A stretch of 64,000 bases of DNA. Source: a virus. Numbering within the stretch: position 1 is the first letter of the stretch; every line of letters begins with the position of its first letter. The notes beneath the pieces were generated by a model that ran no database searches, was not told where the DNA came from, and saw nothing but the letters and a program-made list of their open reading frames with translations. The DNA lies in the IMG/VR virus record IMGVR_UViG_3300032893_000006, positions 1 to 64,000 of that record, one strand, 5' to 3'. A program made the translations under genes and the position numbers. Shown piece by piece: positions 8,319 to 17,775 of the stretch.

Positions 8319-8744
8319 ATGTGTCTTTCATCTGTCATCGAGACGTGCGATCATCCATCCGATGTCATCATCGACGGATGGAAAGAGATCGACGCGAAGA
8401 ATCCGCGCTTCATGTTTAAGCAGAACGGAAGCTACGACATCCCCTTCGATAAGTGGATTACAGCAACAGACGAGCACGCGCCGACTGGCATCAAGGCGAG
8501 CGATGGCCAAACGTACGATCCCGGTTTCCATGCCTACGCCGACGAGAAGGAAGTAGACACAAAGCGTATGCAGCGAGTATTTCTGCGCGGCGTCACCTGC
8601 ATCGGGAAGCAAGGTGGCAAGAGAGCGGTGATTGCTCGCCAGATGTATCTTCCCTCGAAAAATAACGGCTGGCCACCGAAGCCCGATGAGGAAAACAAAT
8701 CGCTCATGGACCGCGTGAAGAACGTCTTGCCGGGGAATGCCTGA
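8319..8744 (+). CDS. Hypothetical phage protein
   Basis: 141-aa ORF, tightly packed. Confidence 0.6.
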   Translation: MCLSSVIETCDHPSDVIIDGWKEIDAKNPRFMFKQNGSYDIPFDKWITATDEHAPTGIKASDGQTYDPGFHAYADEKEVDTKRMQRVFLRGVTCIGKQGGKRAVIARQMYLPSKNNGWPPKPDEENKSLMDRVKNVLPGNA

Positions 8745-9523
8745 TGCCGATCCTCGAAAAAGAAAAAGTCATCTCTCCGGTGATTGCACCCCTACCGGAT
8801 GACGGGGCCATGTATAGCCTCTTGGGAGGAGTGGACTACGCTACGAACGCGGGGATTACGGTGGGAGCCGTGATGACAGGGGGGAACTTATCGGCAACGG
8901 TCCTCACTCTCAGCGATTTAACTCGCATGGTAGATCAGTTCCAGCAAACTATCTATACTTCGAGTGGCGCTCAGACAGCGCTTGGCCAGTCCCTCCACTA
9001 TCCAACAATCATCCCGAATTCTTTTGGGGCTCAGACTCAATATCAGGTGGATGGTTGGTACACCAGCATCGGGAGCCTATATGGGGCGATGCAGTACCAG
9101 ATCAACCAAGTGTCCAATGTCTGGACGAACATTGTCACAGCGGGTTTTGGCTGGTCCAGTTTTGCGACTCCTGAGGAGCTTGCAGTTCATCAGGAAAGAG
9201 AGGCCGCACGTGCTGCAAAGTTCGCCGCCGCCGAATCCCGCGCCGAGCAATTGATGCTCTCGCTTCTGATGCCGGATCAGGTACAACAGTACAAAGATCA
9301 CGGCTATTTTGAAACTCTGGTGGACGACCGTGTATACCGCATCAAAAAAGGCAGGGCCGGAAACGTTGAGTTGATTGTCAAGGGGAAGCCAGCGATGCGT
9401 TACTGTGCCCATCCACTCGACTGGACACCAGCGCCGGATGCAATGATCGCGCAATTTTTGATGTTGAAAACCAACGAGAAAAAGTTCATCGAAACAGCAA
9501 ACAAGACTCAACTGGCAGCTTAG
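8744..9523 (+). CDS. CxHP-motif protein, paralog of 23646-24413
   Basis: C-terminal domain Q..Y...GYF...YRIKKGR...YCAHPL...P..D...A....E..F. Confidence 0.7.
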   Translation: MPILEKEKVISPVIAPLPDDGAMYSLLGGVDYATNAGITVGAVMTGGNLSATVLTLSDLTRMVDQFQQTIYTSSGAQTALGQSLHYPTIIPNSFGAQTQYQVDGWYTSIGSLYGAMQYQINQVSNVWTNIVTAGFGWSSFATPEELAVHQEREAARAAKFAAAESRAEQLMLSLLMPDQVQQYKDHGYFETLVDDRVYRIKKGRAGNVELIVKGKPAMRYCAHPLDWTPAPDAMIAQFLMLKTNEKKFIETANKTQLAA

Positions 9524-9555
9524 CAAGCTATCAAGTCTAAAATCCGGGGGGAACA

Positions 9556-10155
9556 ATGCACATTCCAGATAGCATCCGCAACGCATTATTTGAGGAAGAT
9601 GCGACACCAGCCAAGCAGGCTCCTGTTGCCGCTCCACACCCAATGCAGGCCGTTCCGCAGTCGCCAATGGACTTAGCGGCACCAGTCGCTTCGGCAACTT
9701 CCGATCCTCACGACGGAGATGCATACCAGAAGGTTCTTGTCAGAACCGACTATACTAAAGCACCGCTGTTTGCTGTGTTTCAAAAGTATCTTGCGCCCAT
9801 GGCCGACATGCCGATGGACGACAAGACGAAATTCAGCATCGCTCTCAAACAGGCTCAGGCGCAGGAGGGTCTCGACGTCAATGCGCTTCTGAAGTTGTTT
9901 GATGACGCAACAGATGCTCTCCAAAAGGCGGTCGATGGATTTGCACAAGCGACGGCTCAGTTTGTCGATGAGCAGGTGACGGCGCGCAACAAGAAAGCGG
10001 CTGACCTTGAGGCCCAAGCTCATCAACTCAAGGAAGATGCTTTTGCCGCGCAACAGAAGAGCGATCAAGCGAAGCACAACTTCGACGTCGCAGTTGCGAA
10101 ACGCTCGAACGAGATCGCTTCCGAAAAGTCAAAATATGCCAGCTTGCTGGTTTAA
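9556..10155 (+). CDS. Coiled-coil protein of the ABC/OmpA cassette
   Basis: Ala/Gln/Lys-rich helical C-half; SD GGGGGA. Confidence 0.7.
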   Translation: MHIPDSIRNALFEEDATPAKQAPVAAPHPMQAVPQSPMDLAAPVASATSDPHDGDAYQKVLVRTDYTKAPLFAVFQKYLAPMADMPMDDKTKFSIALKQAQAQEGLDVNALLKLFDDATDALQKAVDGFAQATAQFVDEQVTARNKKAADLEAQAHQLKEDAFAAQQKSDQAKHNFDVAVAKRSNEIASEKSKYASLLV

Positions 10156-10166
10156 GGAGTCCACCA

Positions 10167-11222
10167 GTGTCCACCAATATGTCACTTCCAAGCTCTGCAG
10201 ATTTGAAGTCCTTCTGGTCCCGTCCCGAAGGGAAGGTCGCAATCGGCATCTACGCAGCGGCTATCGGCGCGGTCGTCTACTTTTGGGGGCTGATCGTTCC
10301 ATTCATTGTCTCGATGCTTGAAGACACGCTACACATGGTGTATCTCGCCGGGATACTCGGTGCGGTCGCATACCTCGTGTTCGGCAAGCGTCCGCAGTTG
10401 ATGTTTCGAGTGCTCGTCAGGAAACTTACCAGCTTGTTTGTTGCCGTCTATCCTGTTGAAATTACCGAAGACAAGTTGCAGCAGATGAAAAAAGGACGCG
10501 ATAAAATGAACGGACAAATTTCGCTAGTAAAAGGAAATATCGTTCAATTGCAGCGGGTAATGCAGCAGAACCATGCCGACGCCGTTAAGGGATTCGGTAT
10601 GGCGCAACAGGCGCAAAAAATGGCGGCAGCTACCCATGACGAGAATGAGCAGTTGCGAATGCAACTGGCCATGAAAAAGGCCGCTCGTCAAGCTCAACGC
10701 CGGGAACAATCAAACATCGGCTATGCCAGCCTGCTCGAAAGACTCCAGAAGGTCTATAATTTCCTGACACGGTATGCGACCAACATCGACTTTTTTATTG
10801 ACGACACGCAGGACCAGATCGATCAAAAGAAACTTGAGTATAAGACCACCATGGCGGCGTCCAGCGCGATGAAACAGGCAATGGCGGTCATCAAGGGTAA
10901 TGCCACAGAAGAGGATATGTACGATCAGGCATTCGATTACATCGAGCAAAGCGTCAGCACGCAGCTTGGCATCATGGACGACCTGCAGCGCATCTCGCAG
11001 AACTTCATGGATGGCATGGATGTGCAAACCGGCGCTGTCGACGATGCGGCTCTTCAGGCATTGAACGCATTTGAACAGAAGGCGCTCACCTCAGGCGACA
11101 AGAGCTTTGATCTTGTCATGAGTGATGCGAAACCAAAAGCCGTTCCAGTACCCATTCGGGCAACGGGAACAACGGGGGAACTCGGCGCGTCGTCATCTGA
11201 TTGGGACGACATGCTGAAGTAG
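10167..11222 (+). CDS. Membrane-anchored PspA/ESCRT-III-like coiled-coil protein
   Basis: Two N-terminal hydrophobic segments then a long helical hairpin-like region with an acidic C-tail. Confidence 0.55.
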   Translation: MSTNMSLPSSADLKSFWSRPEGKVAIGIYAAAIGAVVYFWGLIVPFIVSMLEDTLHMVYLAGILGAVAYLVFGKRPQLMFRVLVRKLTSLFVAVYPVEITEDKLQQMKKGRDKMNGQISLVKGNIVQLQRVMQQNHADAVKGFGMAQQAQKMAAATHDENEQLRMQLAMKKAARQAQRREQSNIGYASLLERLQKVYNFLTRYATNIDFFIDDTQDQIDQKKLEYKTTMAASSAMKQAMAVIKGNATEEDMYDQAFDYIEQSVSTQLGIMDDLQRISQNFMDGMDVQTGAVDDAALQALNAFEQKALTSGDKSFDLVMSDAKPKAVPVPIRATGTTGELGASSSDWDDMLK

Positions 11223-11243
11223 CAAGACACGGAGGGAAGAAAT

Positions 11244-13058
11244 ATGGCAGGTTTGAAGAAGGGGCCACGGGTCGTACTTGCGGCCTTGGCTGTAGTTGGA
11301 GTTATCTTTGGTCTCCGCACTGCAATGCAGAAGGGACTGATCCCTACACCGGGAATTATGAAGTCATTGGTTGCGGCGCGGGTGACGTTGCCGCCACAGC
11401 AAGATGCAGAAGTTGCGAATGTCGTGGCTCTTCCGTATCCATCGTCAAGTCCTGCGAGCGTCTCCGCAAACCACATTCAGTTCGATGTGTGGGAGTGGAA
11501 TGCTATGTTCTCGCTGATCTACGCAAACGGCGGCGCGAACACAACCAAGGGCTCTTTGATGGAGAAGAACAACGTCAATCTCACTCTGCATCGCGAAGAC
11601 TCAAACGAGCAGATGAAGGCCGATCTGCTCGCCTGCGCAAAGCAACTTCACGATGGTGCGCAAAATTGTACGACTGGAGCCGAAGCGATTGTTGTTATGG
11701 GCGACAGCGGTGGGCAGTGGCTTGCCGATCTTAATCCGCAGTTAAAGAAGCTCGACAAGTCAGGTGCGTATGACGCTGAGATTATCGGTGCGGTAGGCCG
11801 GTCGAACGGCGAAGATGCCCTGCTTGGCCCTGCTGAGTGGAAGACCAATCCACAGAGCATGAGGGGCAAGACCGTCGTCGGTGTGATTCGCGATGGCGAC
11901 TGGAACATCGCGCTCAATTACGAGGGCTCGAACGGGCTCAAGAACAATCCCGATTTGAAGACCTACGATCCGGATGCGGTCAACTGGATAGCCGCTCCTG
12001 ACGAAGACTACATCAAGGCCGTAACCGAGGTTTATGTTCCAAACCGCTGCGAAGAGCGGCAGGTGGTCAAAGACGGCAAGATGACCGGGGAGACAAAGAA
12101 CGTATGCCCGGACGGAGTAGTTACATGGACTCCGGGAGACGAGCAGGCCGTTCATGGACGTCCGGGAACAACAAAGATCATCTCGTCGCACGAATACGCG
12201 TCGCAGATGCCAGCAGTAATCCTCGGCATCAAGAAGTTTTTCAATGACAATCGCGACGAGATCAACGGCCTGCTTGCTGCGTCGTTTCAGGCTGCGGATC
12301 AGGTGAAAGCATTCGATGCCGTCCGTCAGGCTGCAGGCAAGATGTCGGCACAGCTTTACAACGACCAGACAGGCGACTACTGGTATCGCTATTACAAAGG
12401 CTTCACCGATCCGACAGGCGTGCCATTGGGTGGTTCTGCCGTTTTCAATCTCCAAGACGATATCAATTATTTCGGCCTAGACGGTCAGCATAACAACAAC
12501 ATGCGTGCGACCTATGAGACGTTTGGGAAGATCGCAACCATGAATTACCCGGCGCTTTTCAAGGACAACCCCATCCCGCCATATCGCGAAGCCGTCGATC
12601 CGTCATTTATCAGTGGAGCACAAGCGCTGTTAAGTTCGAGCGATGCAGGGGGAGCGAGCGCTGAGACAGTTGATTATTCTGCACAGGCTCAAAGCGGCGA
12701 GGTTCGCGGCCATAAGGCCGTTTACATCAACTTTGCGACCGGCTCAGACGTACCTCTGCCCGACAGCATTCCTGCCTTGAACGAACTAAAGGACGCGCTG
12801 GCAATCAATTCACAGCTTGCCATTAAACTCGATGGTTATACCGACAACACGGGATCGGATACAGTGAACGTACCGCTCAGCAAGGCGCGTGCCGAGGCAG
12901 TGAAGCACTTTTTCCAGCAAGCTGCGCCGATGAGCTTCCCTGACTCGCGGTTTGTTTCTGTTGACGGTCACGGCTCCGCCGATCCGATTGCGGCCAATAC
13001 TTCAGCAAGCGGTAAGGCTCTCAACCGGCGTGTGGAGATCACGCAAATCGGGCAATAA
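11244..13058 (+). CDS. ABC-type substrate-binding protein fused to a C-terminal OmpA-like peptidoglycan-binding domain
   Basis: N-terminal signal/TM; C-terminal INFATGS, DGYTDNTG, N..LS..RA.AV, GHG...P...N...NRRVEI. Confidence 0.85.
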   Translation: MAGLKKGPRVVLAALAVVGVIFGLRTAMQKGLIPTPGIMKSLVAARVTLPPQQDAEVANVVALPYPSSSPASVSANHIQFDVWEWNAMFSLIYANGGANTTKGSLMEKNNVNLTLHREDSNEQMKADLLACAKQLHDGAQNCTTGAEAIVVMGDSGGQWLADLNPQLKKLDKSGAYDAEIIGAVGRSNGEDALLGPAEWKTNPQSMRGKTVVGVIRDGDWNIALNYEGSNGLKNNPDLKTYDPDAVNWIAAPDEDYIKAVTEVYVPNRCEERQVVKDGKMTGETKNVCPDGVVTWTPGDEQAVHGRPGTTKIISSHEYASQMPAVILGIKKFFNDNRDEINGLLAASFQAADQVKAFDAVRQAAGKMSAQLYNDQTGDYWYRYYKGFTDPTGVPLGGSAVFNLQDDINYFGLDGQHNNNMRATYETFGKIATMNYPALFKDNPIPPYREAVDPSFISGAQALLSSSDAGGASAETVDYSAQAQSGEVRGHKAVYINFATGSDVPLPDSIPALNELKDALAINSQLAIKLDGYTDNTGSDTVNVPLSKARAEAVKHFFQQAAPMSFPDSRFVSVDGHGSADPIAANTSASGKALNRRVEITQIGQ

Positions 13059-13060
13059 CA

Positions 13061-13234
13061 ATAACGTGGCCTGAGGCTATTTACAGAATCTTCACGGAAA
13101 TCGGCGGCGCGTTATTACTCGCCGCCGTCCTACTTGCCTTCTTTACAAACTTCTGGGCCGACTTATTCAGGTTCCTAGATCGAAACAGAAAAACAGAGTT
13201 TATTCCAACCAAAGACACCGAGGACGAGGAATGA
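13061..13234 (+). CDS. Small membrane protein with no canonical start (ATA), not in the ORF track
   Basis: 57 open codons filling the gap exactly, hydrophobic GGALLLAAVLLAFF, ATGA overlap with the permease. Confidence 0.5.
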   Translation: MTWPEAIYRIFTEIGGALLLAAVLLAFFTNFWADLFRFLDRNRKTEFIPTKDTEDEE

Positions 13235-14007
13235 AGGAAGCGTTCACACCAAATGCCGTTCTCGACAAGTCGGCGATGCGGACTCTTATTGGCATCGAGG
13301 TCATAACGGCGATGATCCTCTGGTTTGTCAGTCCGTCGCCATTGCTGCCAAAGCCGGGAGAGGTATGGTCGTCGTTCGCCGACCTCTGGCAGCAGGGCCT
13401 CGGTGCGGAACTGATTACCAGTCTCGTGCTCAACCTCGAAGCCATTCTCGCGGCGACGGTGGTATCGCTGCTGTTGTCCTATGCGAGCGTGATACCTGTG
13501 TTTCAGCCGATAGTCAGATTCATCGGCAAGCTCAGGTTTCTGTCTCTGGTTGGCCTCACCTTCGTGTTCACTCTCATGACGAGCAGTGGCCACGAATTGA
13601 AGCTGTCGATTCTGGCTTTTTCGGTGACTGTGTTTTTTGTGACGTCGATGGAGGACGTACTGGGATCGATCCCGAAAGAGGTCTACGATCTGGCGCGCGT
13701 GCTGCACATGGGCAAGTGGCGGATGGTGTGGGAGGTTGTTGTGCTTGGCCAGTTCGACAAGGTCTTCGATGTCATCCGGCAGAACGCGGCGATGAGTTGG
13801 ATGATGCTTACTCTTGTTGAAGGCATCGTGCGGTCGGAAGGTGGTATTGGTGCCGTGCTGCTCGACCAGAACCATCACTTCCGCTTGTCGGCAGTGCTCG
13901 CAATCCAGTTGACGATCTTGATGCTTGGCGTTGCGCAGGACTACGCTTTTGGCTTCGCAAAGAAGTTCTGCTGCCCCTATGCGTTTCTCACCGTGGAGGC
14001 ACGATGA
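13231..14007 (+). CDS. ABC transporter permease (SsuC/TauC-like)
   Basis: About six hydrophobic segments, LPKPGEVW, EAA-like loop SIPKEVYDLARVLH. Confidence 0.85.
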   Translation: MKEAFTPNAVLDKSAMRTLIGIEVITAMILWFVSPSPLLPKPGEVWSSFADLWQQGLGAELITSLVLNLEAILAATVVSLLLSYASVIPVFQPIVRFIGKLRFLSLVGLTFVFTLMTSSGHELKLSILAFSVTVFFVTSMEDVLGSIPKEVYDLARVLHMGKWRMVWEVVVLGQFDKVFDVIRQNAAMSWMMLTLVEGIVRSEGGIGAVLLDQNHHFRLSAVLAIQLTILMLGVAQDYAFGFAKKFCCPYAFLTVEAR

Positions 14008-14834
14008 ACGTTCCCTACGTGTACAAAGACGTCATCCTGAAGCTCGACAACATCTGCCTTGAGTACGACGGCAGGCCGATCCTCAAGAACATGTCTGCCG
14101 AGATACGGGATATTTACATCCCCGGAAGGGTAACAGGGCAGATCGTCGCAATCTTGGGTCCGAGCGGTGTGGGCAAGACGCAAACCTTCAGGATCATGGC
14201 CGGTCTGCATCGTCCAAGCTCTGGACAGGTGTTGCTTACTGACGGCACCGGCTTCCATCCCGTGCGAGCAGGGCAGGTCGGAGTCGTTGCGCAGAACTAT
14301 CCGTTGTTCAATCACCGCTCGATTTTCGGGAACCTGATGATCCCGGCGCTCGCTCACCAGAAGGACTATGCGGCAGCGAAGGAAGCTGTTGCCGATGGGC
14401 TGGAGAAGTTTGGCCTCTCGGACAAGGCTACTCTCTATCCGGCTCAGCTATCGGGCGGTCAGCGCCAGCGCGTGGCGATCCTGCAGATGTTGCTTTGTCA
14501 AGAGCAAGTTATTCTCATGGACGAACCATTTTCTGGTCTCGATCTGGTGATGCTTGAAAAGACGTGCGAGACGATCTCGGACGCGGCAAATCTTTCCGAA
14601 TTGAACACCATCGTGATTGTCACCCACGACGTCACGGCTGCTGTATCGATTGCAGATCATATTTGGCTCTTGGGCAGGGACCGCGCCGTCGATGGGAGCA
14701 TTATTCCCGGCGCTCGCATCGTCGAGACATACGACCTGTTAGCGCGCGGTTTGTGCTATGAAAAAGGCGCAATTACAAATCCACGTTTCATGGAAACGGT
14801 GCGCGAAATCAAAGACAAATTCCGGAATCTATAG
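14004..14834 (+). CDS. ABC transporter ATP-binding protein (SsuB/TauB-like)
   Basis: GPSGVGKT, Q-loop, LSGGQRQR, ILMDEPF, VTHD. Confidence 0.95.
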   Translation: MNVPYVYKDVILKLDNICLEYDGRPILKNMSAEIRDIYIPGRVTGQIVAILGPSGVGKTQTFRIMAGLHRPSSGQVLLTDGTGFHPVRAGQVGVVAQNYPLFNHRSIFGNLMIPALAHQKDYAAAKEAVADGLEKFGLSDKATLYPAQLSGGQRQRVAILQMLLCQEQVILMDEPFSGLDLVMLEKTCETISDAANLSELNTIVIVTHDVTAAVSIADHIWLLGRDRAVDGSIIPGARIVETYDLLARGLCYEKGAITNPRFMETVREIKDKFRNL

Positions 14835-14842
14835 GAGGCATT

Positions 14843-15223
14843 ATGGATGCATCGCAAGTAGCGGACAAAGCCATTACCGAACTGATGCAGCGCATTGATG
14901 GTTTAGCGATGAAACTGGGCACTACGGCAAACCACGTGTTCGATATCTATGTTGCACAAGCACGAGTTGAGGCGACTCGCGACGCAATGGTTTCTATCTT
15001 CTTCTTCATTGTGGGAATGGTGGCTGCAATAAGGGCACATTCCATCTACAAAAAAAGAGTTGAAGACGATGAGTTACCGGTTTTATTTGAATGCTTTATC
15101 TTTGTCGCGATTATCTCCTTCGTATTTACATTATTAAATGCCTACGCATCATTCGGCGAAGCGCTCAACCCGCAATATTGGGCATTGCATCAACTGGGAA
15201 CTGATATAAAATCTCTTTTCTAA
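14843..15223 (+). CDS. Two-TM hypothetical membrane protein
   Basis: Two hydrophobic segments; SD AGGAGG. Confidence 0.65.
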   Translation: MDASQVADKAITELMQRIDGLAMKLGTTANHVFDIYVAQARVEATRDAMVSIFFFIVGMVAAIRAHSIYKKRVEDDELPVLFECFIFVAIISFVFTLLNAYASFGEALNPQYWALHQLGTDIKSLF

Positions 15224-15278
15224 AAAGGAGGTCGCGGTAGACAAAGCAAGGAGAGATCAAGGAAATGGTTCGTACGCT

Positions 15279-15866
15279 ATGAGCTTGCCGTGTGCAACAT
15301 GTCATGCAGACTGTTGTGGTCCGGTTGTACTGACCAAGTTCAGACTGCAACGCATCAATGATTATCTTCGGTCTAAGCCGCGAGAGGAACTGGAAAGGCT
15401 AGCGGCCCAGAAGCGGGATTGGGTGACCTGCAAGTTCGTAGATACGCAAGATTTTTCATGCTCTGTGTATCCAGTAAGGCCACGGCAATGCGAACTGTAT
15501 GGACGTGTTGCCGGAATGAGGTGTCCTCATGTAAATGGGTTGGTAAACATCGTAACTCAATCTACCGCAGACCTGTGGATGGCGCTTGAGCTAGAAAGTG
15601 AAGTTGTTGGGTTGTCAAACGAATACAAATGGAGGGAAATCATGGGCGGAAATCAATACACCGTAGCAGAAGATACTGGGTCCAAGTTGGAACAGCCGGG
15701 ACCAACGCCACAACAGGTCGAGCTTCTTGTATGTAAGTGCGGAGACTGCACGCACTGGGAGATCGGCCATAACTTCATTATGTGCCGCACATGCGGCGAT
15801 AGCTTTAGCGCTGAGATAACGGTGCCTGACCACGATAAGCTTATCTGGCAGATACATCAGCGCTAA
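15279..15866 (+). CDS. YkgJ-like cysteine-cluster protein with a Zn-ribbon C-terminal part
   Basis: CATCHADCC, CKF, CSVY..RP.QC..Y; C-terminal CKC and CRTC. Confidence 0.6.
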   Translation: MSLPCATCHADCCGPVVLTKFRLQRINDYLRSKPREELERLAAQKRDWVTCKFVDTQDFSCSVYPVRPRQCELYGRVAGMRCPHVNGLVNIVTQSTADLWMALELESEVVGLSNEYKWREIMGGNQYTVAEDTGSKLEQPGPTPQQVELLVCKCGDCTHWEIGHNFIMCRTCGDSFSAEITVPDHDKLIWQIHQR

Positions 15867-15982
15867 ACAAGCTTCCCCGCAATGGGAAGGCGCGGGTCTT
15901 TAGAGATGGCCCGGGGAGGGGCCGAAAATGAAATTCTTGAACAAGGGACCCGCACACAATATTGAATCTAGGAAGCACGGCT

Positions 15983-16096
15983 ATGAGAATCGTCGCCATA
16001 ATGTTATCGATTGTGTTTGCGGTCACATCTGTATTAGCGATTGTATACGCTATTCGCCATCGGTCCGATAAAGACGGTGGTGGAAACGTGTTTTAA
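15983..16096 (+). CDS. 37-aa single-TM peptide
   Basis: MRIVAIMLSIVFAVTSVLAIVYAIRHR...; below the ORF-track length cutoff. Confidence 0.45.
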   Translation: MRIVAIMLSIVFAVTSVLAIVYAIRHRSDKDGGGNVF

Positions 16097-16111
16097 CGAA
16101 AGAGGTGGCAG

Positions 16112-16744
16112 ATGTTCGTCAGTGAGTTTCGTAAAGTTGGAGACTTGAAGCTCCCTCCGTACAGTGGAACTCGGGTTATGATGCTTCCAATCGTAATAGG
16201 TGACTGCGCCAGTATCCCAGACTTTTTATCCCATTACAGATGGACAGCATGGCGACTGGCTCACATGGCTGATCCTGAACATCTCGGCAAGGTCGGCTAT
16301 CTCACCATAGATGAAAAACATGTACTTGCTGGCACGACGCACAGGCGCGCAGGGATGCATGTTGATGGTGGCAAAGACAGAGGGTGGGGCGGCGGAGGCT
16401 GGGCAGGAAAAGACACTGGAATGTTGACTATCTCGTCTCATGTTGGATGCCGTGCTTGGGCTCAGACATTCGATGGAGAAGTTGGTGATGAGGGCGACTG
16501 CGAGGGCTTATTCGATGAGCTTCAATCGAGCGGAACTCTGCTCGCACCGGGCACTGTCTACTGGCTTGGAGGTCTGTGTGTTCACGAGTCTCTTGCTCAG
16601 CCCAGTGATGTGAAACGCCAGTTTGTTCGTCTCTCTCTACCATCAGAAGCGCCATGGTATGAAGGCTACACAGAGAATCCCTTGGGCGTTCTCCCAACAG
16701 GCCAAATTCTTCCGCGACGCAAATTTATGGACGAAGGTGCATGA
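16112..16744 (+). CDS. Fe(II)/2-oxoglutarate oxygenase-like protein
   Basis: MHVDG (HxD), VHES (distal His), RQFVRL. Confidence 0.55.
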   Translation: MFVSEFRKVGDLKLPPYSGTRVMMLPIVIGDCASIPDFLSHYRWTAWRLAHMADPEHLGKVGYLTIDEKHVLAGTTHRRAGMHVDGGKDRGWGGGGWAGKDTGMLTISSHVGCRAWAQTFDGEVGDEGDCEGLFDELQSSGTLLAPGTVYWLGGLCVHESLAQPSDVKRQFVRLSLPSEAPWYEGYTENPLGVLPTGQILPRRKFMDEGA

Positions 16745-17775
16745 GCGAACTGCAACTTATCTACGAACGCTTGGATCAGGCGTGCTGCCCAGAGGAAGTC
16801 TTCGGCGACGCGGCTGATATTTCTGCGAACTTTAAGCTACTTGCCCGTGCGTGCCATCCAGACTTTCACCCCGGTGATCCGTTAGCGAAGAAAGCGTTTC
16901 AAAAGCTCAATTCATTGAAAGTGGTCGCCGAGGAAAGGGTGAAGGCTGGCGAGTGGGGAAAGAAAATTCCCTTGCCGCACTGCACGCCGGTAAAGATCGG
17001 TGCATACGATGTCAACCGCGATCCGCAGATTGGAGACATTGCCGATGTATATCGCGTGCGCGGCGCGGATGCATACGTTAAAGTGGCGCGGAGTCACAAT
17101 GACAATGATTTGATCCGTGCTGAAGCTGAGGCGCTGAAGGTGCTTGAAGGTGTAAAGCCACCTATATGCGAAGGGATTCCAAAACTACGCTCAACCTTCC
17201 AGATTGACGGTCTGCGAAAGAGAGAAGTCAATGTAATCCTCGGATTTCCGGATTTTATTTCGCTTCTCAATGTACGCGGCAAAATGGACGTTGACGCTCG
17301 CACGTCGGTATGGATATTTAAGCGACTTCTTTCTGTTCTTAGTTGGGTACATCACTTTAAGATGATTCACGGGGCAATTCTCCCGCCGCACGTTCTCGTC
17401 TATCCAGACAACGACGGGAGGTCCGGATTTGATCCACGCAAACACACAGTGAGAGTGATCGACTGGTGTTATAGCGTGGATTACAAAAAACGCACGCGGC
17501 TTTCGGCGTGGGTTCCGGCGTGGAAAGATCATTATGCTCCGGAGCTACTCAATAAGACCGGCATCGGTCCATCGTCAGATATTTACATGGCGGCAAAGCT
17601 CATCCGCTATCTGTGCGGTAAATTGCCGCCTGCGATGGAAACAGTTCTCAACCGTTGCCTAGACCCCAATCCAAAGAAACGCTACCAGAAGGCTGGACAC
17701 GTTTTCGATGATTGGATGAAGGCGGCTGTGATGGAGTTCGGCTCTCCAAAATGGCATGAGTTCAACTTGCCGTGA
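16741..17775 (+). CDS. J-domain (HPD) fused to an atypical protein-kinase-like domain
   Basis: LARACHPD; YVKVAR, AEAEAL, HGAILPPHV, VIDW. Confidence 0.8.
   Translation: MSELQLIYERLDQACCPEEVFGDAADISANFKLLARACHPDFHPGDPLAKKAFQKLNSLKVVAEERVKAGEWGKKIPLPHCTPVKIGAYDVNRDPQIGDIADVYRVRGADAYVKVARSHNDNDLIRAEAEALKVLEGVKPPICEGIPKLRSTFQIDGLRKREVNVILGFPDFISLLNVRGKMDVDARTSVWIFKRLLSVLSWVHHFKMIHGAILPPHVLVYPDNDGRSGFDPRKHTVRVIDWCYSVDYKKRTRLSAWVPAWKDHYAPELLNKTGIGPSSDIYMAAKLIRYLCGKLPPAMETVLNRCLDPNPKKRYQKAGHVFDDWMKAAVMEFGSPKWHEFNLP

Follow-up and report, generated by a model that had tools for sequence, protein, structure and literature searches.

A phage-borne copy of a sporadic bacterial accessory operon predicted to encode a wall-tethered binding protein, an ABC importer, and a PspA-like membrane protein

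Overview of the Cassette

The first 64 kb of the virus record IMGVR_UViG_3300032893_000006 from IMG/VR (64,000 nucleotides, hereafter the window), a record of 134,337 bp that is rated by CheckV as 100% complete, contains a cassette of five same-strand genes, A, B, C, E, and F, followed by a zinc-ribbon element, G (Table 1). Our preferred reading, to which we give about an even chance of being correct, is that the cassette is a phage-borne copy of a sporadic bacterial accessory operon, in which wall-tethered solute import is coupled to inner-membrane maintenance. In the proposed mechanism C, located in the periplasm with one end tied to the inner membrane and the other to the cell wall, would capture a small solute for delivery to an importer of E2F2 composition. 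A transmembrane (TM) hairpin would hold B in the membrane, its PspA-like domain facing the cytoplasm, and B, together with its helical partner A, may stabilise or reshape the inner membrane at the site of the transporter. The zinc-ribbon protein G could be a cytoplasmic accessory or regulator. The infected cell would gain uptake and membrane-maintenance capacity during replication of a large genome and, because most of the Acidobacteriota sampled do not have the operon, the phage would be supplying a complete system.

Conservation of the Cassette as a Unit

A search for related loci identified 66 bacterial loci and seven phage loci other than the window. The bacterial carriers are mostly Acidobacteriota (Terracidiphilus, Bryobacterales, and other Terriglobales), together with Gemmatimonadota, Methylobacter, Myxococcota, and Chthonomonadales, and some of the loci lie on contigs of 1.3–5.4 Mb. 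Hidden Markov models (HMMs) for A and B located both genes directly upstream of C, giving the order A-B-C-E-F, in 56 of the 66 bacterial loci; the exceptions are truncated contigs and the copies from Myxococcota and Chthonomonadales. The seven phage loci (six IMG/VR contigs of 63–179 kb and the 462-kb huge phage LR756500.1, whose copy is distant) all contain B-C-E-F, and six of them also A. A preliminary description, made from the window's letters alone, had included co-occurrence of the PspA-like gene with the transporter elsewhere in the test of its proposals, and B was found directly upstream of C in those 56 bacterial and all seven phage loci. Since A and B co-occur with the transporter in this way, the cassette is better viewed as one unit than as a plain importer of the SsuABC/TauABC kind, and a simple sulfonate/taurine importer was rejected.

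The distribution of the unit is patchy. In an even sample of the phylum, C is carried by 5 of 301 Acidobacteriota genomes. The flanks of the bacterial copies differ by genome, with CysS, Dus, SLT, a sigma-54 regulator, and an extracytoplasmic function (ECF) sigma factor among the housekeeping genes found there; no bacterial flank matches any other gene of the window, and Pfam searches of the flanks of the Longimicrobium, Myxococcales, and Chthonomonadales copies returned nothing. The phage copies lie among phage replication, auxiliary, and metabolic genes. The presence of the same operon amid housekeeping genes in bacterial chromosomes, and the earlier description of its type (Ravi et al., 2024; PMC11237479), count against the reading in the preliminary description, as the cassette is not a phage invention.

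Two contigs from relatives of the window phage, L072 (165 kb) and L073 (152 kb), carry the cassette at approximately 50% identity beside the same von Willebrand factor A (vWA) and adenylosuccinate-synthetase (AdSS)-like genes as the window; the wider vWA/AdSS-cassette region may be a conserved accessory block. Separately, in a metagenome-assembled genome (MAG) of Terracidiphilus, genes for tetratricopeptide repeat (TPR) and CHAT-domain proteins with a defence-type appearance are located just upstream of the cassette (L007:4359-7045), a neighbourhood not seen in the other two genomes with scanned flanks.

The Binding Protein Fuses a NrtA/TauA-Class Fold to a Wall-Binding Domain

The C-terminal domain of C is an OmpA domain (PF00691; residues 500–595, 2.9e-12), which scored 47.2 bits in Pfam against a cut-off of 27.2 and gave PDB profile matches down to 9e-25. 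Comparison of 18 homologous sequences revealed that T533, D534, G537, N542, L545, S546, R549, A550, and N594–V597 are invariant, i.e. the motifs TD..G..N..LS..RA..V and NRRV are wholly conserved; the conserved Asp and Arg of these motifs are presumably the diaminopimelate contacts. An AlphaFold2 (AF2) model of C built from the family alignment (mean predicted local distance difference test, pLDDT, 84.3; predicted template modelling score, pTM, 0.81) superimposes in this region on the OmpA domain of TagL with a Z score of 18.6 and a root-mean-square deviation of 1.3 over 113 residues, with the expected beta-alpha-beta-alpha-beta-beta fold.

Preceding the OmpA domain, residues ~72–460 are predicted by the model to adopt the two-lobed fold of the NrtA/CmpA/TauA/SsuA class of binding proteins. 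This region superimposes on solved structures of TauA (Z 23.3, 291 residues), CmpA (Z 22.9, 329 residues), NrtA (Z 21.7), and SsuA (Z 21.6), the superpositions spanning 285–339 residues at only 7–13% identity, and a Foldseek search with the model returned NrtA at an E value of 1.9e-9. The language-model neighbours of C are NMT1 families, which we treat as a lead only. The fusion of a solute-binding protein to OmpA, as claimed in the preliminary description, is thus borne out by an above-threshold Pfam match for one part and by the modelled fold for the other.

The N-terminus of C consists of a hydrophobic helix with neither a lipobox nor an obvious cleavage site and so is likely to be a signal anchor. 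A search against 1.84 billion representative sequences gave 232 clusters at E ≤ 1e-30, and the 150 listed are, with few exceptions, ~600 residues long and match end to end, implying that the anchor-binding domain-OmpA architecture is a hallmark of the family and not a quirk of the window phage. C is also more strongly conserved than its partners (rate of nonsynonymous substitution, dN, 0.14; mean column identity 54% across phyla). In an Archangium sp. MAG, a 415-residue protein paralogous to the binding domain, which has a signal peptide but lacks OmpA, is encoded directly upstream of the binding protein-OmpA gene (L059:4701-5948); it is 40% identical to the binding domain of the window C.

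The Permease and ATPase Are Probably of the Importer Type

All of the motifs expected of an ABC (ATP-binding cassette) ATPase can be read in the F translation, including Walker A (GPSGVGKT), the Q-loop, the LSGGQ signature, Walker B (ILMDEP), and the H-loop (VTHD), in agreement with the intact motifs reported in the preliminary description. F matches PF00005 (ABC_tran) in Pfam (3.8e-26, 92.7 bits) and phrog_293 in PHROGs (6e-48), and its NCBIfam matches are nucleotide-binding domains (NBDs)/ATPases of the importer type. The window E protein is more divergent. Its score against BPD_transp_1 (E value 0.0026, 17.9 bits) falls under the 26.4 cut-off, and 10 of the 13 family members match the same domain, with a best E value of 3.6e-8. 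Further matches of E are to the SaoP and NtrB permeases in NCBIfam (~1e-5, a weak nitrate-type likeness) and to phrog_6743 in PHROGs (6.7e-9), and its coupling loop, DLARVLHMG, is of a divergent EAA type. At the level of sequence these comparisons show that F is an ABC ATPase with its motifs intact and indicate that E is probably an importer-type permease. With a probable importer-type permease, an intact ATPase, and a binding protein of NrtA/TauA fold, transport would be the simplest activity for the cassette.

B May Be a Remote Relative of PspA and Is Accompanied by the Conserved Protein A

The N-terminal part of B contains two hydrophobic helices, each side of which is bordered by basic residues; by the positive-inside rule, this charge distribution suggests that both termini are cytoplasmic (N-in/C-in). 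Beyond the TM pair the B model contains long helices, with a pLDDT of only 63. Alignment by hhalign of the B family with four canonical PspA sequences from carrier genomes (which encode an ordinary PspA elsewhere) gave a probability of 82.6% and an E value of 9.7e-6 over 167 columns, in a register that places DPI.IL of B on EDPEKMI at the start of PspA helix 1. Foldseek searches with the B model returned Vipp1/PspA as the top matches (E value 2.6e-3). When the B family was compared with Pfam, PF04012 was the commonest sub-threshold family, found for 3 of 13 members, the best with an E value of 0.0018 and 18.4 bits against a cut-off of 33.9.

A belongs to a conserved family with no match in Pfam, PHROG, or NCBIfam; an Atlas search with A returned only hypothetical families, and no similarity was found between A and PspA or between A and B. 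In a Myxococcales locus a distant relative of A (hhalign 77%) is located downstream of F, and no link to B was found for the TM protein that is also encoded downstream of F there.

Gene Layout and Phage Context

The cassette lies 9 kb inside the record, where genes for a RecT-like protein, a replication initiator, DnaB helicase, an HNH endonuclease, and a sliding clamp flank it. Its genes are tightly spaced (A-B 11 nt, B-C 21 nt; E and F share the 4 nt ATGA) except for a C-E gap of 172 nt. A blastn search of positions 9000–16000 against GenBank phages gave no match, and promoter and terminator scans of 8500–16500 found sites no more numerous than in shuffled sequence. When 10 large open reading frames (ORFs) from 62–100 kb of the record were compared with PHROGs, only two of the 10 gave matches, one to a virion-structural/head-closure family and one to an unknown family. 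The same region contains a series of very large same-strand ORFs, of up to 1535 residues, nearly all without a PHROG match. The virion module of this phage lineage thus appears, from its sequence, to be highly divergent and barely recognisable, and we accept the record as that of a phage with this caveat.

Table 1. Features of the cassette region, in window coordinates
Feature	Description	Position	Strand	Basis
A	Cytoplasmic helical protein, 199 aa, with Pro/Ala-rich disordered N-terminus	9556..10155	+	Conserved family, alignment A4
B	Two N-terminal TM helices and PspA/IM30/ESCRT-III-like helical hairpin domain, 351 aa, GTG start	10167..11222	+	Remote homology
C	N-terminal membrane anchor, binding domain (~72–460), and OmpA_C (~488–603), 604 aa	11244..13058	+	Pfam, AF2 model
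D	Small hydrophobic ORF of doubtful status between C and E	13067..13234	+	Open frame only
E	Probable ABC type-I importer permease, NitT/TauT-like, 258 aa	13231..14007	+	BPD_transp_1, NCBIfam, PHROG
F	ABC ATPase, 276 aa, catalytic motifs intact	14004..14834	+	PF00005, phrog_293
Inserted gene	Phage membrane-protein gene, 126 aa	14843..15223	+	phrog_1486 'membrane protein', 3.9e-12
G fusion	N-terminal CxxCxxCC domain and 4-Cys zinc ribbon (last ~48 residues)	15279..15866	+	PF03692, identity to bacterial G

The preliminary description had presented a cassette of six genes. Five of these (A, B, C, E, and F) are confirmed, but the small TM gene is doubtful: the frame at 13067–13234 does encode a TM-like stretch, no ATG, GTG, or TTG start was found in it, and bacterial copies, in which the C-E gap measures 0–134 nt, contain no counterpart. 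As it has neither a canonical start nor a bacterial counterpart, we leave it out of the cassette. Other short hydrophobic ORFs are present in the C-E gap of phage contigs L069 and L073. Within the putative small ORF, positions 13103–13128 form a GC-rich inverted repeat (GGCGGCG ... CGCCGCC), but the RNA fold of the gap as a whole is unremarkable (z −1.2).

At the other end, the cassette extends to 15866 and includes a seventh conserved element, a zinc ribbon that the preliminary description overlooked. The ORF at 15279–15866 contains PF03692 (CxxCxxCC) at residues 5–76 (3.2e-08), and its C-terminus is 52–62% identical to a 55-residue 4-Cys protein encoded directly after F in one set of bacterial copies (group 1, below). 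A G HMM detected the zinc ribbon in 45 of 73 loci. Among the copies inspected, fusion of CxxCxxCC to the ribbon occurs in the window phage only, the ribbon being free in bacteria. The bacterial gene order is broken in the window by the inserted gene at 14843–15223 (phrog_1486, category 'moron'), which separates F from the zinc-ribbon ORF and has no counterpart between F and the ribbon in the bacterial loci or in L069.

Evolution of the Cassette

A tree of C sequences, which was made by a quick method and midpoint-rooted and so does not establish the direction of transfer, places the window and L069 as the sister group to a shallow clade that contains 41 bacterial copies from two orders; other phage copies branch at the base of a second acidobacterial clade. 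The window C is 76–81% identical to the group 1 bacteria and 53% to group 2. The reverse is seen for B, with identities of 26–28% to group 1 and 47% to group 2. The window and L069 therefore combine a group-2-like B with a group 1 C; phage L070 has the opposite combination. The cassette modules are mosaic, which implies recombination between cassette types.

Transfer has apparently also occurred between bacterial orders. When a Solibacteraceae genome was compared with a Terracidiphilus genome, the cassette proteins were 77–84% identical versus 58% for Dus and 54% for PspA, a difference that points to movement of the cassette between the two orders.

Synonymous sites are saturated between the window and every relative, such that the ratio of dN to the rate of synonymous substitution (dS) is mostly uncomputable against the nearest relatives; where it could be computed, omega is ~0.04. 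Given the saturation of dS and a dN of 0.14 for C, the phage copy is evidently old, is subject to purifying selection, and was not captured recently. The alignments thus describe a patchy accessory operon that is maintained in phage lineages by purifying selection.

These data bear on the possibility that the cassette is a functionless passenger, i.e. host DNA captured recently and by accident, or misjoined to a viral contig during assembly. The window C is 76–87% identical to proteins from Acidobacteriota MAGs (e.g. Terracidiphilus and Bryobacteraceae), as such an origin would predict, but synonymous sites are saturated relative to all bacterial copies, and all of the ORFs and motifs are intact. 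Further, the bacterial flanks share nothing else with the window, the cassette persists at ~50% identity in an equivalent neighbourhood of related phages, it is interrupted by a phage gene, and it is situated well inside the 134-kb record between phage replication genes. Recent capture or an assembly chimera is largely refuted by the saturated dS, the phage neighbourhood, and the inserted gene, and we regard the passenger explanation as extremely improbable.

A more speculative scenario, which we think unlikely, is that large phages are the main reservoir and vector of the cassette and that the chromosomal copies in Acidobacteriota, which are shallow and cross orders, are secondary acquisitions from them. 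The cassette would then be a phage-adapted module for envelope takeover, pairing a wall-tethered ABC engine with an ESCRT-III-like membrane protein to reshape or repair the inner membrane of the host during infection. This scenario is compatible with the basal position of phage copies relative to both acidobacterial clades, with the greater diversity of the phage copies and their recombinant B/C combinations, with the rarity of C among the sampled Acidobacteriota, and with the excess identity of the cassette over Dus and PspA in the Terracidiphilus/Solibacteraceae comparison.

Weighing the Proposed Function

The reading of the cassette as wall-tethered import coupled to membrane maintenance has to accommodate several observations that weigh against it. 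Pfam searches with the window B found no match to PF04012 or PF03357, and a PDB profile search with B returned only chance coiled coils. Although E. coli PspA (4whe) ranked first in an unfiltered VIA structural scan with the B model (Z 12.4), it was level with unrelated generic hairpins. On this remote evidence from sequence and model comparisons, B is best termed "PspA-like" and is not a demonstrated member of the family; the corresponding assignment in the preliminary description gains remote support from the hhalign and structural matches and none from Pfam for the window protein. Sequence searches with C likewise do not recover the fold seen in its model: Pfam gave no family other than OmpA at E ≤ 0.01 and no NMT1/NMT1_2 match, and PDB searches with the whole protein, the family profile, or the binding domain alone returned OmpA domains or nothing. 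In the alignment of the binding-domain family (A5), Arg58 is the sole invariant basic residue and Asp, Trp, and Tyr are frequent, from which we infer that the binding site may be unlike that for nitrate or bicarbonate. No assimilation enzymes are linked to the operon in the flanks examined. Finally, a physical partnership between B and C is putative, since B and C types have been recombined between cassettes, and such shuffling argues against a tightly co-adapted B-C machine.

Some of the same features could be read as signs of an envelope-integrity device. In this alternative, tethered C would report on periplasmic conditions, either the spacing of wall and membrane or peptidoglycan fragments, and the ABC cycle, used for signalling or mechanical work, would recruit B and A for repair or remodelling of the inner membrane. 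The strict synteny of A and B with C-E-F across phyla and phages, the anchoring of C at both ends, its stronger conservation than that of its partners, and the lack of linked metabolic genes in the flanks examined are all consistent with this proposal, and a link between remodelling and transport has been suggested in the study of related operons (Ravi et al., 2024; PMC11237479). However, the permease appears to be of the BPD_transp_1 importer type and not a MacB/FtsX-type mechanotransmitter, and C retains a complete two-lobed binding-protein fold. Nor is the association with A and B universal, as the Myxococcota and Chthonomonadales copies have neither upstream of C. The free binding-protein paralogue in Archangium is of a kind often found with solute importers, and the shuffling of B and C types counts against this device too. 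We consider it a doubtful but serious possibility. The preliminary description had favoured a sensing or remodelling machine over a simple importer; the cassette does behave as one unit with A and B, but the probable importer-type permease, the intact ATPase, and the NrtA/TauA fold keep transport as the simplest activity.

The preliminary description had also raised superinfection exclusion, in which the cassette would alter the envelope of the infected or lysogenic cell and block injection of DNA by other phages, as an anti-phage defence. Carriage by at least eight phage genomes or contigs, a wall anchor of the OmpA/MotB-like kind found in ZorB, and the one bacterial copy beside TPR-CHAT genes could be taken to favour such a role. 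PADLOC, however, gave no specific match: the OmpA part was matched to ZorB (1e-8) and the ABC NBD to mad3/AriA, i.e. only generic MotB and ABC domains were recognised, and A, B, E, and G matched nothing. Most bacterial copies are found amid housekeeping genes without a conserved defence-island context, the phage copies are among replication and metabolic genes, and the component types are those of transport and membrane maintenance. Exclusion is thus very unlikely to be the function of the cassette.

Since several large soil-phage lineages keep the whole set under purifying selection, its function must pay off inside a single infection. The cassette poses the puzzle of which solute is bound by a peptidoglycan-tethered binding protein and why that protein travels with an ESCRT-III-like membrane protein. 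It also suggests that an envelope module is being spread by phages across orders and phyla of abundant soil bacteria. Should B prove to be a genuine membrane-anchored relative of PspA, it would provide a naturally tethered membrane-remodelling protein that is convenient for mechanistic work.

Comparison with Known Systems

The transporter part of the cassette is similar to the NitT/TauT systems NrtABCD/CmpABCD and TauABC/SsuABC with respect to the fold of the binding domain, the probable type of permease, the weak NtrB similarity, and the importer-type ATPase. In contrast with all of these, C has no NMT1 match in sequence and possesses an additional OmpA_C domain and an apparently uncleaved anchor; further, the cassette lacks a regulatory fusion of the NrtC/CmpC type and linked assimilation genes. 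B may be likened to the ESCRT-III superfamily members PspA, Vipp1 (IM30), and LiaH in its predicted long helical hairpin; its DP-x-x-I/L motif is aligned with the start of PspA helix 1, and its best structural matches are Vipp1 and PspA. It differs from PspA in having a two-TM hairpin in place of the amphipathic helix alpha-0, in its length of 351 residues, and in Pfam matches that are sub-threshold or absent.

Cyanophage pstS and similar auxiliary genes provide a precedent for uptake functions in phages, in that the phage supplies a periplasmic binding protein that boosts uptake during infection. These phages encode the binding protein only and use the permease and ATPase of the host, whereas the window phage carries a whole transporter together with membrane partners.

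Complete ABC systems have been reported to adjoin 15 PspA genes of huge phages in a survey of phages >200 kb that selected PF04012-positive PspA of 200–300 residues (preprint 10.64898/2026.10.24.761521). The window cassette resembles these loci in having a phage PspA-type gene beside a binding protein, a permease, and an ATPase. It differs in that its PspA-like partner is a 351-residue TM protein from a 134-kb phage, which that filter would miss, and the passages of the preprint on these neighbourhoods describe no OmpA fusion on the binding protein.

The closest known arrangement is an operon type in which PspA or membrane-anchored Snf7 is encoded alongside an ABC ATPase and a permease, together with PBPB-OmpA, exemplified by OGG56892.1 (Candidatus Handelsmanbacteria) and AKJ06548.1 (Archangium gephyra) (Ravi et al., mSystems 2024, PMC11237479, section 18 and Table S3). 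That operon type is a comparative-genomics prediction, from which a link of membrane remodelling with solute transport was suggested, and no experimental study of it was found in the literature searched. Compared by described architecture, both have a TM-anchored PspA/Snf7-like protein, a binding protein-OmpA fusion, a permease, and an ABC ATPase in one operon. The order in the published example is PspA, PBPB-OmpA, permease, ATPase, TM-Snf7, and double AAA+ ATPase, versus A, TM-PspA-like protein, binding protein-OmpA, permease, ATPase, and zinc ribbon in the window. No AAA+ gene was found by Pfam and PHROG searches within 8744–17775, the rest of the phage genome not having been searched. The operon type is therefore known from comparative genomics, and, relative to the published example, the window cassette differs in lacking a canonical PspA and an AAA+ ATPase, in its gene order, in its addition of the A family and the zinc ribbon, and in being carried by a phage.

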